A stretch of DNA of 64,000 nucleotides from an uncultured Chryseobacterium sp. (GTDB lineage Bacteria > Bacteroidota > Bacteroidia > Palsa-965), in the NCBI GenBank assembly GCA_966211705.1, contig CBIHOC010000024.1:9319-73318 (forward strand), in the 5' to 3' direction. A program made the position numbers and the translations under genes. Under the pieces are notes generated by a model that was not told the origin of the DNA, made no database searches, and saw only the letters and a list, made by a program, of their open reading frames with translations. This document shows, piece after piece, positions 36,347 to 38,767 of the stretch (within the stretch, counting starts at the first letter, position 1; each line of letters starts with the position of its first letter).

Positions 36347-38767
36347 ATGGCACGGAAACAGTTTATTCTCGTGGCGGGCGTAGACTTTGTCAATTTCGAG
36401 CTCGACTTCGGCGCGCTTTGTCAACTGCGCGTAAACGACCTCATCGCGGACCATAAAGGAACAGCCGACCTGCGGTTCAAGATATTCGATGTGCGCCGGG
36501 GGACGATCACGATCATCGAGGTGACAGCTGCGGGCAAACGTATCCCTCCTGTCGTGGACGGCACCGACTTCCGCGAGATCACGAAGAAAGATTACCCGGG
36601 TTTCAAAAAGGGAGAGTTGCTCGGCAACCTGCTGAAAAAAACCGTCTTCAGGGTTATGTCGATAACCGACGTTTACCGGGAAGTGATTTCTCTCGGAAAA
36701 AGCTTCCCGGGCGAACTGATCGAGCTGAGCTTCTTCACTATCTTCAGCAGTCATCGCATTCCACTGGTCAATTCCCCGATTTCCGATGGCGCCGTTCACG
36801 GGAATAAAGCGGCTTTCAAAAAGTTGCCGAAAGGCTCCCGCGACCCGGACGACCCGGATGGCGAGTTCAACCTCGATTTTAAGCCGCCGCGTATGGGCAG
36901 GGAAGACCTCTCGCATTTTCAGGCGGCTTTCCATCCCGACGGTTATGCCTGGATATGGGGCAATGACAGGGGTTTCCTTAGTGATGGCTTGCTGGAGTTC
37001 CTGGACTTTGCGCTCCGGCTCAAAGAGCTGGACGATCCCTCTTCGCCGGACGACCTGCTGATCGGGATCCCCGGAACTGCAAAGCCGGAATCGAAATTTC
37101 TTCTTTTCTGGGTTGAATGGATGCTCTCGTTAAAAGATTACCGGGCGAGCGGTTATAAAGTGCCCCTTAAGCTGATCCGCTACCTGGTTTGTCACTACGC
37201 CAGCCGGCCGCCGGCAGTGCGTCTCAAACAGGCCGCCAACCTCAAAAAAGTGTACGGAACGTTCAGGGATTTCGTCATCGACTTCGATCCGGGCAATAAA
37301 CGTCTTCCTGAAGTTGCAGCTTTCCAGGAGGCCGCACGGTTGGCATTGCAAAAACGATTTAAGCTTCGGTCTGCTCCCCAGGGGAATTACACGGAATTCG
37401 GCGACACGGTTTTTTGCCCGCTTCCATACTTTGATGCGAACGTTTACAAACCGAAGAAAAAAAAGCCGGGAGCAGCGACTTCTGATCAGCCTTCATCGCA
37501 ACCAGCATCCCAGCCCGCATCGCTTCCGAAGCCTGCGCCTCCTGCCGTTCCTTTTACATCCGACTCGCCGCTGCTGAAACCCACGCACCCGATGTTCCGG
37601 CTGAACGCCTATGCGCGACATTACATTTTTGTCGCCGGCGTCGATTACAAATCTTCGGGAGCGAATTTCCTCCAGCTGTGCATGAACCGCGTCGATCATC
37701 TTATCGCCCGCGACGATAACCGGGATACTATGCTGTTCCAGGTGCTCGACGTCGGGTCCGGGCAGGTGATCTTTGTGGAAGTGAAATACGAGACCGGCAC
37801 GATCGCGGAAGAAGGTTTCGTAAAGTCCATCGTCAATGCGCATGCTTCGGTGAAAAAAACCACGGACGACCTGGTGAGATTTGAACAGGTGAAGAATAAC
37901 GACGCGCATTATGAAATACGGACGAATGAGATGGGCGACCGGGAGCGGTTCTTCAGGGGAACGCAGGGCGCGATGCCTGCCGCGGAAATGTACAGGCGCG
38001 TGATCGCGCTCGGGGAAAAATGCCCGGGACGGTTGATGGAGCTGGGCTTTTTCACGCACGGGACCGAAGCCGGGCCGCGGCCGCTGAACTTCCCGGAGGA
38101 ATTGGAAATTTCCGGTGTCCCGGTCGACCCGCTTGCATTTGATCCGTCGCCTCTCGATTTTGACCTGCTCCCCGGTGAGGCCGAACAGGCAGCTTTCCGC
38201 GACGCGTTCCATCCCGGCGGTTACAGCTGGACGTGGGGCTACGATTCCGACCCGGAATTGCGCAAGCTGCTCAAAGCGCTGCTCGACAGCAAAGAATACA
38301 AAGCAGGAGGATTAACGGAAGACACCATTATTACGCTAAAGAACCCGACGCCCCGGCTAAGGCTCTTCGCACAGCGGGTCGCCGGGCTGCTGCCGAAGCG
38401 AAAAGTTCCGCCGCTGAAGATCGAAATGCCGTTCGGGCGCCTGCTGCGTTTTTTTGCGGCGGTGATCAAATCCTCGTACATGTACCATCTGGCGCGGGAA
38501 ACGGGCAAAGATGTTTTCGGCGCGCTCCCGGGAACTGCCGCCGGTCCGGAATCCGGTACACTTTACCCGCTGATGCGTGTCGATCCGGCTTATGCAAAGT
38601 ATTCCGGGTTTTTTCAAACACATTTCGGATTTGAATCCGACCCGGAAAAGAGAGGCTATGGAAAATATATCCCGGATTTTCCCTGGGACGATTCCGATCT
38701 CGCAGGCGTAAAGATCGGGCAGCAGGTACTCGAAGAAGTAAAAGAGTTCCCGGTGGAAGCGGAATAA
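36347..38767 (+). CDS. Large (806 aa) uncharacterised protein made of two homologous ~300-aa halves joined by a Pro/Ser-rich linker
   Basis: Half 1 ILVAGVDFVNF...LRFKIFDVRRGTITIIEV...YREVISLGKSFPGELIELSFFT...AAFHPDGYAWIWGND aligns with half 2 IFVAGVDYKSS...MLFQVLDVGSGQVIFVEV...YRRVIALGEKCPGRLMELGFFT...DAFHPGGYSWTWGYD. Linker KKKKPGAATSDQPSSQPASQPASLPKPAPPAVP. Confidence 0.6.
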   Translation: MARKQFILVAGVDFVNFELDFGALCQLRVNDLIADHKGTADLRFKIFDVRRGTITIIEVTAAGKRIPPVVDGTDFREITKKDYPGFKKGELLGNLLKKTVFRVMSITDVYREVISLGKSFPGELIELSFFTIFSSHRIPLVNSPISDGAVHGNKAAFKKLPKGSRDPDDPDGEFNLDFKPPRMGREDLSHFQAAFHPDGYAWIWGNDRGFLSDGLLEFLDFALRLKELDDPSSPDDLLIGIPGTAKPESKFLLFWVEWMLSLKDYRASGYKVPLKLIRYLVCHYASRPPAVRLKQAANLKKVYGTFRDFVIDFDPGNKRLPEVAAFQEAARLALQKRFKLRSAPQGNYTEFGDTVFCPLPYFDANVYKPKKKKPGAATSDQPSSQPASQPASLPKPAPPAVPFTSDSPLLKPTHPMFRLNAYARHYIFVAGVDYKSSGANFLQLCMNRVDHLIARDDNRDTMLFQVLDVGSGQVIFVEVKYETGTIAEEGFVKSIVNAHASVKKTTDDLVRFEQVKNNDAHYEIRTNEMGDRERFFRGTQGAMPAAEMYRRVIALGEKCPGRLMELGFFTHGTEAGPRPLNFPEELEISGVPVDPLAFDPSPLDFDLLPGEAEQAAFRDAFHPGGYSWTWGYDSDPELRKLLKALLDSKEYKAGGLTEDTIITLKNPTPRLRLFAQRVAGLLPKRKVPPLKIEMPFGRLLRFFAAVIKSSYMYHLARETGKDVFGALPGTAAGPESGTLYPLMRVDPAYAKYSGFFQTHFGFESDPEKRGYGKYIPDFPWDDSDLAGVKIGQQVLEEVKEFPVEAE

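Follow-up and report, generated by a model that had tools for sequence, protein, structure and literature searches.

A two-lobed Bacteroidota protein as a fusion of two probably caspase-like units that lack the catalytic cysteine, beside a constant partner in a two-gene cassette

Introduction

A stretch of 64,000 nucleotides (nt) from an uncultured Chryseobacterium sp. (contig CBIHOC010000024.1, positions 9,319 to 73,318 of the forward strand; hereafter, the window) encodes a protein of 806 amino acids (aa) whose two halves carry the same motifs in the same order. This locus raises the question of what was duplicated, how long ago, and whether the repeated motifs are those of a working site. 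We consider it probable, as one joint reading, that the repeated unit represents a family, as yet unnamed, which shares the caspase/haemoglobinase fold with clan CD cysteine peptidases, that the protein arose by an ancient fusion of two such units and is a tandem pseudo-peptidase, and that it stands in the enzyme slot beside a 945-aa partner.

Internal duplication of a complete unit

An internal tandem duplication had been proposed from the sequence alone, and alignment of the two halves with each other bears it out. Residues 1 to 400 and 401 to 806 match by BLASTP at 75.9 bits (E = 2e-19; 29% identity over 234 columns), pairing residues 4 to 207 with residues 424 to 633, and the Smith-Waterman score between the lobes is 184, compared with 36.1 ± 4.4 (maximum, 53) in 300 shuffles (z = 33). 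The four motifs quoted in that sequence-only reading each occur twice and in register: VAGVD (residues 9 to 13 and 429 to 433), F[KQ][IV][FL]DV..G.....EV (44 to 59 and 464 to 479), YRxVIxLGxxxPGxLxELxFFT (110 to 131 and 549 to 570), and FHPxGYxWxWG (195 to 205 and 621 to 631). The low-complexity linker that it had described is also present, as a Lys/Pro/Ser/Gln-rich string (KKKKPGAATSDQPSSQPASQPASLPKPAPPAVP) at residues 370 to 402. The repetition therefore stands, but the proposed size of the repeat, halves of ~300 aa, does not, because the repeated unit is a whole protein unit of ~360 aa. A profile hidden Markov model (HMM) built from single-unit homologues only matches residues 4 to 326 (E = 3.7e-52) and 424 to 778 (E = 1.1e-58), near full length in both lobes, which indicates a head-to-tail fusion of two complete units. 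The parts of the protein are as follows; model confidence is given as the predicted local distance difference test (pLDDT).

36347..38767, + strand: gene of the 806-aa two-lobed protein (the end coordinate takes in the stop codon)
36353..37429, + strand: N lobe, aa 3 to 361, the first ~360-aa putatively caspase-like unit, degenerate (envelope of the HMM from single units only, E = 3.3e-51)
37445..37585, + strand: linker between the lobes, aa 367 to 413, Lys/Pro/Ser/Gln-rich, pLDDT <50 and predicted to be disordered
37613..38695, + strand: C lobe, aa 423 to 783, the second unit, with His-Gly and most motifs of the C-terminal subdomain kept and Cys lost
38696..38764, + strand: C-terminal acidic tail, aa 784 to 806, which in the alignments has no counterpart in single-unit proteins

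At the DNA level, the sole remnant of similarity between the lobes is a 36-nt, 80%-identical stretch under FHPxGYxWxWG, which marks the duplication as old and as neither a recent repeat nor an assembly artefact. The linker differs in length and sequence between two-lobed orthologues (alignment A1), and residues 791 to 806 of the tail are modelled at low pLDDT. Two short in-frame DNA repeats lie within the gene: a perfect 9-nt repeat in two copies (36841 to 36858), which encodes DPDDPD of an acidic loop in the N lobe, and a weak 12-nt repeat in 2.5 copies (77% matches; 37494 to 37523), which encodes SQPASQPAS in the linker. These repeats suggest that local slippage shaped the acidic loop and the linker. 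A scan for promoters and terminators gave counts no different from shuffle expectation.

A metagenomic contig and a low-complexity linker could also point to an artefact, that is, to adjacent paralogues joined by an assembly or frameshift error, or to chance or compositional similarity between the halves. This explanation is already refuted in practice. The identical protein is found on three contigs of different sources, and nine independent two-lobed orthologues (22 to 58% pairwise identity) from different samples have a continuous open reading frame (ORF) with a linker. The N and C lobes are, moreover, separately orthologous, and the similarity between them stands far outside the shuffled scores (z = 33).

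A family of mostly single units

Full-length relatives of the 806-aa protein number six among 5.8 billion clustered proteins, and all are ~800 aa long. Single-copy relatives were first reached via its genomic partner; these proteins of 330 to 370 aa come from Bacillus, Alteribacillus, Tsukamurella, Streptomyces, Cellulomonas, and Microbacterium, and each matches the two-lobed profile (E values of 1e-37 to 1e-67). The single-half homologues that the sequence-only reading had suggested looking for are thus plentiful (~330 to 370 aa): a profile search returned 186 clusters of ~360-aa proteins, and an exhaustive HMMER scan of 1.84 billion representatives yielded 581 matches, 192 of them at E ≤ 1e-30. 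Nearly all of the 581 are single-copy (most ~350 aa), and about ten are two-lobed. Precomputed Pfam matches were absent for the 120 single units listed.

The two-lobed form is rare, and every named locus that carries it is in a Bacteroidota metagenome-assembled genome. In nine of nine two-lobed proteins the nearest relative of the N lobe is another N lobe, and that of the C lobe is likewise another C lobe (9/9), indicating that the fusion happened once. In some relatives the unit is the C-terminal part of a longer protein that also has an M15 or VanY peptidoglycan-peptidase domain; among ten longer relatives, four are such fusions (P0269, P0259, and P0235 with Peptidase_M15_3 and P0210 with VanY). 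Together with the M23 peptidases that occur as an alternative in the enzyme slot (see below), these fusions hint at a cell-wall-related target.

Predicted fold and relation to clan CD

Sequence searches place the 806-aa protein in no described family: Pfam, NCBIfam, PADLOC, PHROGs, and PDB-sequence searches were empty or insignificant with single sequences and with profiles (alignments A1, A2, and A4 for the family and PDB-sequence searches, of which A1 and A4 served for the 806-aa family against PDB sequences). Structure prediction was more informative. The full-length model has alpha/beta cores (pLDDT, 67.7; predicted template modelling score [pTM], 0.47), and the C-lobe model from a 65-sequence alignment is of higher confidence (pLDDT, 83.1; pTM, 0.85); the predicted secondary structure of the N lobe is alpha/beta as well. 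In structural comparisons, the first 21 matches of the full-length model and the first 24 matches of the C-lobe model are all clan CD enzymes, ahead of any vWA domain, and across these two independent models the top matches span eight different clan CD families. The structural alignments have about 10% identity, and the best three Foldseek matches in the PDB are C11 peptidases at E values of 0.004 to 0.02, which are not significant alone.

The fold of MEROPS clan CD consists of a parallel core sheet (strand order 2-1-3-4) with flanking helices alpha1 to alpha3, and the catalytic His/Cys dyad sits at the C-terminal ends of beta3 and beta4 (PMC4357240). The models agree with this caspase/haemoglobinase fold. 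Single units begin straight with beta1, and the unit comprises an alpha/beta core of ~215 aa followed by a C-terminal subdomain of ~140 aa. This predicted gross layout may be likened to that of clan CD and especially of family C11 (clostripain, PmC11, and iotapain), the closest family by layout, which has an extended caspase-like sandwich and a separate C-terminal domain in a monomer of ~40 kDa (PMC4850288). In contrast to C11 and the rest of clan CD, the family has no detectable sequence relationship to any clan CD model of Pfam or NCBIfam, it has its own motifs (VAGVDY, RDPDDKDPR, and WxWGCxFPxxxH), and the window protein is without Cys in both copies. No Peptidase_C11 profile match was obtained with Pfam or NCBIfam for the window protein, with Pfam for the 120 listed single units, or with profiles A1 and A4 against PDB sequences. 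The DUF4347 domain, as in the type VI secretion system effector Tce1 of Pseudomonas aeruginosa (PDB 9qpe), is among the closest known systems, and the family gave no sequence-profile match to it (PF14252).

The two-lobed architecture had been taken to suggest a fold that normally dimerises. The part of this idea that stands is the predicted caspase-like fold, since caspases and MALT1 do dimerise, through an antiparallel beta6-beta6 contact on which their activity depends. In the rest of clan CD, as far as it has been studied and with C11 included, the active form is the monomer (PMC4357240).

Could the repeated domain instead be a generic three-layer alpha/beta binder, vWA- or Rossmann-like, in which the conserved His and Cys are structural or bind metal? 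We regard this as very unlikely. The structural matches listed above reach a vWA domain only after clan CD enzymes of eight families, and the best Foldseek matches are also clan CD enzymes, of family C11. In addition, His-Gly and Gly-Cys follow consecutive hydrophobic core strands in the family, as clan CD requires.

Putative active-site residues and their loss

The alignment of 63 single-copy sequences has 85 columns with conservation of at least 90%. Conserved blocks include FFSHG(W)xGGP right after one core strand and WxWGCxFPxxxH right after the next, and the His and the Cys are each kept in at least 90% of these 63 sequences. Sequence and predicted secondary structure would place this His and this Cys at the clan CD dyad positions. 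Because single units carry the clan signature (strand-His-Gly and strand-Gly-Cys), they are most likely cysteine-dependent hydrolases. Clan CD peptidases have strict P1 specificity, and the acidic loop, together with the conserved Asp after beta1 (VAGVD), would suit substrates that are basic at P1. The corresponding sites of the window protein are as follows.

36740..36742, + strand: I132, at the catalytic-type His position of the N lobe (FFSHG to FFTIF in the alignment with single units)
36839..36895, + strand: acidic loop of the N lobe, RDPDDPDGEFNLDFKPPRM, aa 165 to 183, ancestral motif kept
36962..36964, + strand: N206, at the near-invariant Cys position of the N lobe (WxWGC to WIWGN in the alignment with single units)
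38057..38062, + strand: H571-G572, the His-Gly kept in the C lobe right after the strand equivalent to beta3
38240..38242, + strand: Y632, at the Cys position of the C lobe (WxWGC to WTWGY)

Both dyad-type residues are thus gone from the N lobe of the window protein (FFT-I132 and WIWG-N206), and the C lobe has FFT-H571-G572 right after strand 563-569 and WTWG-Y632. The end of beta4, where clan CD enzymes have the catalytic Cys, is occupied by N206 and Y632, and with Cys absent in both lobes the window protein is best described as clan-CD-like in its predicted fold and not as a canonical enzyme member. The same trend is seen throughout the nine two-lobed proteins, in which the N lobe is without His and Cys in 9/9, and the C-lobe His is kept in 8/9. 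The C-lobe Cys remains only in the clade of L006 and L026 (GCNSN); in the clade of the window protein, the position holds Tyr or Phe in all seven members.

These replacements bear on the proposal that FHPxGYxWxWG is a conserved functional site present twice, which is not borne out in that form. The motif corresponds to the beta4 strand before the Cys, this Cys is replaced in both copies, and the His is lost as well in the N lobe. Judged from the alignments, both copies of FHPxGYxWxWG preserve a structural strand of what would once have been an active site, but not a site that works.

The C-lobe site has also gained a residue. After His-Gly, single units have Trp-Met (SHGWMGGP), and two-lobed C lobes have x-Glu instead (HG[TDN]E.GP); this Glu, E574 in the window protein (38066 to 38068), is invariant in 9/9 two-lobed C lobes and was gained only in two-lobed proteins. 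Its gain preceded the loss of the Cys. The conserved aromatic at the Cys position, together with W630/G631 and E574, suggests that the C-lobe groove is still under selection. The groove may have been kept for binding or, less likely, for a rewired form of catalysis.

In the catalytic version, which we think unlikely, the two-lobed protein would be no pseudoenzyme but a hydrolase or transferase with a new function, using H571 with E574, a water molecule, or Y632, or a composite site that includes the acidic loop of the N lobe. Such rewiring would fit a Cys position that is not randomised (aromatic in 7/7 clade members, with W630 and G631 retained), the invariant E574 in nine C lobes versus Trp-Met in single units, and the retention of the acidic loop in one lobe and of His-Gly and the C-terminal subdomain in the other. 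However, the orthologue P0003 has Asp in place of H571 and P0005 has Phe as its aromatic, so not every member could draw on a His base or on a Tyr hydroxyl, and the C.FP...H block beside the nucleophile position is erased as a whole in both lobes (one of four positions kept in the N lobe and none of four in the C lobe). To our knowledge, no member of clan CD is active in the absence of the Cys. The clan CD dyad has been called “highly conserved” (PMC4850288).

On present evidence, the window protein is most likely a tandem pseudo-peptidase, and its two lobes have kept different regions. The ancestral acidic loop (RDPDDxD...DFxxPxM) is preserved at 10 of 11 positions in the N lobe versus 5 of 11 in the C lobe, and the C-terminal subdomain is preserved at 15 of 27 positions in the C lobe versus 7 of 27 in the N lobe.

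A constant partner with interchangeable neighbours

The 806-aa gene is directly preceded on the same strand by the partner gene.

33462..36299, + strand: partner gene, 945 aa, ending 47 nt before the 806-aa gene
34761..34853, + strand: Ser-rich partner segment, LSLDVGVQVSGSFGPSVSFDSQVDSSFSSSV, aa 434 to 464, with strict alternation of hydrophobic and polar residues

The partner has no Pfam, NCBIfam, PADLOC, PHROG, or PDB-sequence match, and it is widespread. Its close homologues number 49, and tblastn confirmed relatives in species-representative genomes, at least 575 in all, distributed over Actinomycetota, Bacteroidota, Bacillota, Proteobacteria, Cyanobacteria, Acidobacteriota, Chloroflexota, and other phyla, and found also in Methanoperedens and on a haloarchaeal megaplasmid. 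Homologues of the 806-aa protein accompany it in six further loci (L001, L002, L003, L006, L016, and L026). The partner lies directly upstream in the window and in L001, L002, and L003, of which L002 is syntenic with the window and L001 and L003 have unrelated contexts.

In 80 fetched partner loci, the next gene usually shares the partner's strand and either overlaps it or starts within a few tens of bases, and this enzyme slot holds different proteins in different genomes. Its occupants include ~920-aa PAD-domain (deiminase) proteins in 14 loci, the caspase-like family in 11 loci and the window, PT-TG proteins in 9, an unknown ~750-aa class in 9, patatin phospholipases in 4, M23 peptidases in 3, one PhoD-like phosphatase, and several singletons. 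The 80 loci share no conserved third gene. The 806-aa gene thus sits in the enzyme slot, the variable half of a two-gene cassette in which the 945-aa partner is the fixed half. The reciprocal test, which started from single units in cultured genomes, found the partner adjacent in two of three cases: directly upstream in Streptomyces (E = 1e-271) and directly downstream in Paenibacillus (E = 2e-217). The partner also adjoins a single unit on a Tsukamurella plasmid and lies close to one on an Ensifer replicon, although plasmid carriage of the partner is rare overall (15/72,556).

The Ser-rich segment LSLDVGVQVSGSFGPSVSFDSQVDSSFSSSV has the highest period-2 hydrophobic (beta-amphipathic) moment in the partner, is flanked by long charged helices rich in Glu, Arg, and Thr, and is conserved across phyla from Bacteroidota to Actinomycetota (alignment A2). 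By its resemblance to the hairpins of beta-pore-forming toxins, it is a candidate membrane-inserting beta-hairpin.

Two other loci illustrate the range of arrangements around the partner and the unit. On plasmid p01 of Bacillus thuringiensis HD-771 (L091, 5948 to 9999), a 967-aa partner homologue overlaps the next start by 4 nt, and the downstream gene encodes a hypothetical protein of 383 aa whose hydrophobic C terminus is probably transmembrane; it is another class of slot protein, unrelated to the caspase-like unit. P0306 (1605 aa; L087, 5936 to 10753) has the unit at its C terminus (residues 1231 to 1604), following an N-terminal part made of a charged coil, a Gly-Ser-rich hydrophobic stretch, and another charged coil, reminiscent of the partner's centre, and PIN and RHH toxin-antitoxin genes lie nearby. 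We considered P0306 as a fusion linking partner and unit and rejected it, because its match to the partner falls short of significance (E of ~0.03 in an 80-sequence database) and no partner is nearby.

Comparison with conflict systems

The constant large protein with its swappable enzymes suggests a toxin-plus-carrier or a sensor-plus-effector system. The cassette is like two-gene conflict modules (effector-swapping anti-phage systems, binary AB toxins, and polymorphic toxin loci) in joining a constant gene of ~1000 aa to a swappable adjacent enzyme, in being patchy across phyla and occasionally on plasmids, and in having neighbours that often overlap at start and stop codons. It is unlike the known modules in having no PADLOC match, defence-rich flanks, immunity gene, trafficking domain, or phage copy, and in a partner without a recognisable domain. 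The criteria for a polymorphic toxin (a trafficking domain, a C-terminal toxin, and an immunity gene) do not describe it, although a PT-TG domain occurs in one alternative effector class of the slot. According to Pfam, the flanking ORFs are ordinary metabolic and regulatory genes.

Several of these results, and some from the protein itself, weigh against the joint reading set out at the beginning. In PADLOC-DB 2.0, neither of the two cassette proteins has a match, nor does the ORF that follows them. A defence-island setting was rejected: only about 5 of 147 flanking ORFs match PADLOC models, all of them generic, so the flanks are not enriched, and the NERD, NOV_C, and KAP neighbours seen in two loci are anecdotal. 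No immunity gene is conserved across the 80 loci, no signal peptide is apparent at the N terminus of the partner or of the 806-aa protein (translations inspected by eye, with no predictor run), and a phage origin was rejected, as the partner has no match in 50,697 phage records. One of the three single units in the reciprocal test, that of Clostridium polyendosporum, is an orphan with no partner alongside. For the protein itself, the match of the family His and Cys to the dyad is a prediction from sequence and modelled secondary structure, no enzymatic activity is known for any family member, and the packing of lobe on lobe is not confidently predicted (full-length pTM, 0.47). Selection on the C-lobe site could reflect non-canonical chemistry rather than loss of function. 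Finally, the test for complementary decay of the lobes was negative: of the 85 ancestral positions, 30 are kept in both lobes compared with 27 expected (p = 0.27), and the correlation of retention between lobes is positive in several orthologues. As retention is not anti-correlated, the asymmetry of the lobes is regional only, and we have rejected global subfunctionalisation as its explanation.

Genomic surroundings in the window

In the window, as in the syntenic locus L002, the cassette lies between a gene for an M24 Xaa-Pro aminopeptidase and a region with succinate dehydrogenase/fumarate reductase genes. Directly 3' of the 806-aa gene is a 162-aa ORF (38824 to 39312, + strand) without a Pfam, NCBIfam, or PADLOC match; L002 has an unannotated 230-aa gene at the matching place, and the ORF is not conserved in other cassette loci. 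The next gene (39400 to 41037, + strand; 545 aa) encodes a seven-transmembrane sensor of the 7TMR-DISM type with a weak HisKA match and no HATPase_c, and it may represent a truncated or split histidine kinase. A longer antisense ORF that overlaps the sensor gene (39283 to 41040) is probably spurious.

Farther away, two proteins upstream of the cassette (23620 to 25299 and 26874 to 29159, both on the + strand) have C-terminal Por_Secre_tail domains, which are type IX secretion system sorting domains. These domains point to a Bacteroidota host, as does the taxonomy of all the other two-lobed loci. Two giant ORFs lie downstream (48087 to 56417, + strand, 2776 aa; and 58752 to 62885, - strand, 1377 aa). 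Between 56000 and 64000, the G+C content falls from ~0.60 to 0.47-0.52, and the GC skew is strongly negative.

Proposed history and role

The most economical reading of the aligned sequences is a series of three stages. A complete ~360-aa gene would have been duplicated in tandem and fused in frame, once. After this fusion, which is seen in Bacteroidota only, the N lobe would have lost His and Cys in every two-lobed member, and the C lobe would have kept its His; in the clade of the window protein, the Cys of the C lobe was exchanged for a conserved aromatic (Tyr or Phe). The series would thus run from an active single unit, through a fused protein whose N lobe is dead while its C lobe looks intact (as in L006 and L026), to a protein in which both lobes are dead, as in the window clade.

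As a probable pseudo-peptidase, the window protein would be a rigid two-lobed body that retains the fold, the former substrate groove of the C lobe, and the acidic loop of the N lobe, and it would act by binding rather than by cutting. Its relation to the partner is a working inference, held with low confidence. The partner would serve as a scaffold, possibly membrane-active via its Ser-rich segment, that acts with the adjacent enzyme; in the lineage of the window protein, the enzyme would have turned into a binding or regulatory subunit of the partner. We further speculate that the cassette is a widespread two-component system of the toxin/immunity type, in which the scaffold deploys interchangeable enzymes and the tandem pseudo-caspase of Bacteroidota is an effector turned regulator. 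This proposal is tentative, and we hold it to be possible rather than probable.

There are parallels among known proteins, which we draw by analogy only. Pseudo-caspases such as FLIP(L), TbMCA4, and bacterial pseudo-orthocaspases, as well as fused protease/pseudoprotease proteins such as CspBA of C. difficile, have lost dyad residues and yet are conserved regulators or binders (PMC7586951, PMC6426788), and the gingipain RgpB has quasi-symmetric N- and C-terminal alpha/beta subdomains in one chain (PMC4357240). The protein described here differs from them in that a disordered linker would connect two whole units, either of which has a C-terminal subdomain to itself and both of which would be dead in the window clade. 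We found no description of a tandem double pseudo-caspase.

Significance

The caspase fold, pseudo-caspases, and the internal quasi-symmetry of RgpB are already known. What is new here is an unnamed clan-CD-like family with its own motifs, the tandem fusion of two complete units with apparently stepwise loss of the dyad, and the place of this protein in an undescribed, widespread two-gene cassette. The architecture of the cassette is typical of conflict systems and yet matches none that is known. Should the cassette prove to deliver toxins or to act in defence, its constant protein would represent a new kind of scaffold, and the family would join the prokaryotic caspase-like effectors; if the proposed conversion from effector to regulator is true, it would be the first in such a system, and the protein would be the first double pseudo-caspase.

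For the family as a whole, 581 unit representatives, along with a partner in at least 575 species, would move from “hypothetical” to a caspase/clan CD context, and the family gains catalytic residues that can be tested. The series from single units to fused proteins with one and then two apparently dead lobes may serve as a natural experiment on the origin and persistence of pseudoenzymes.

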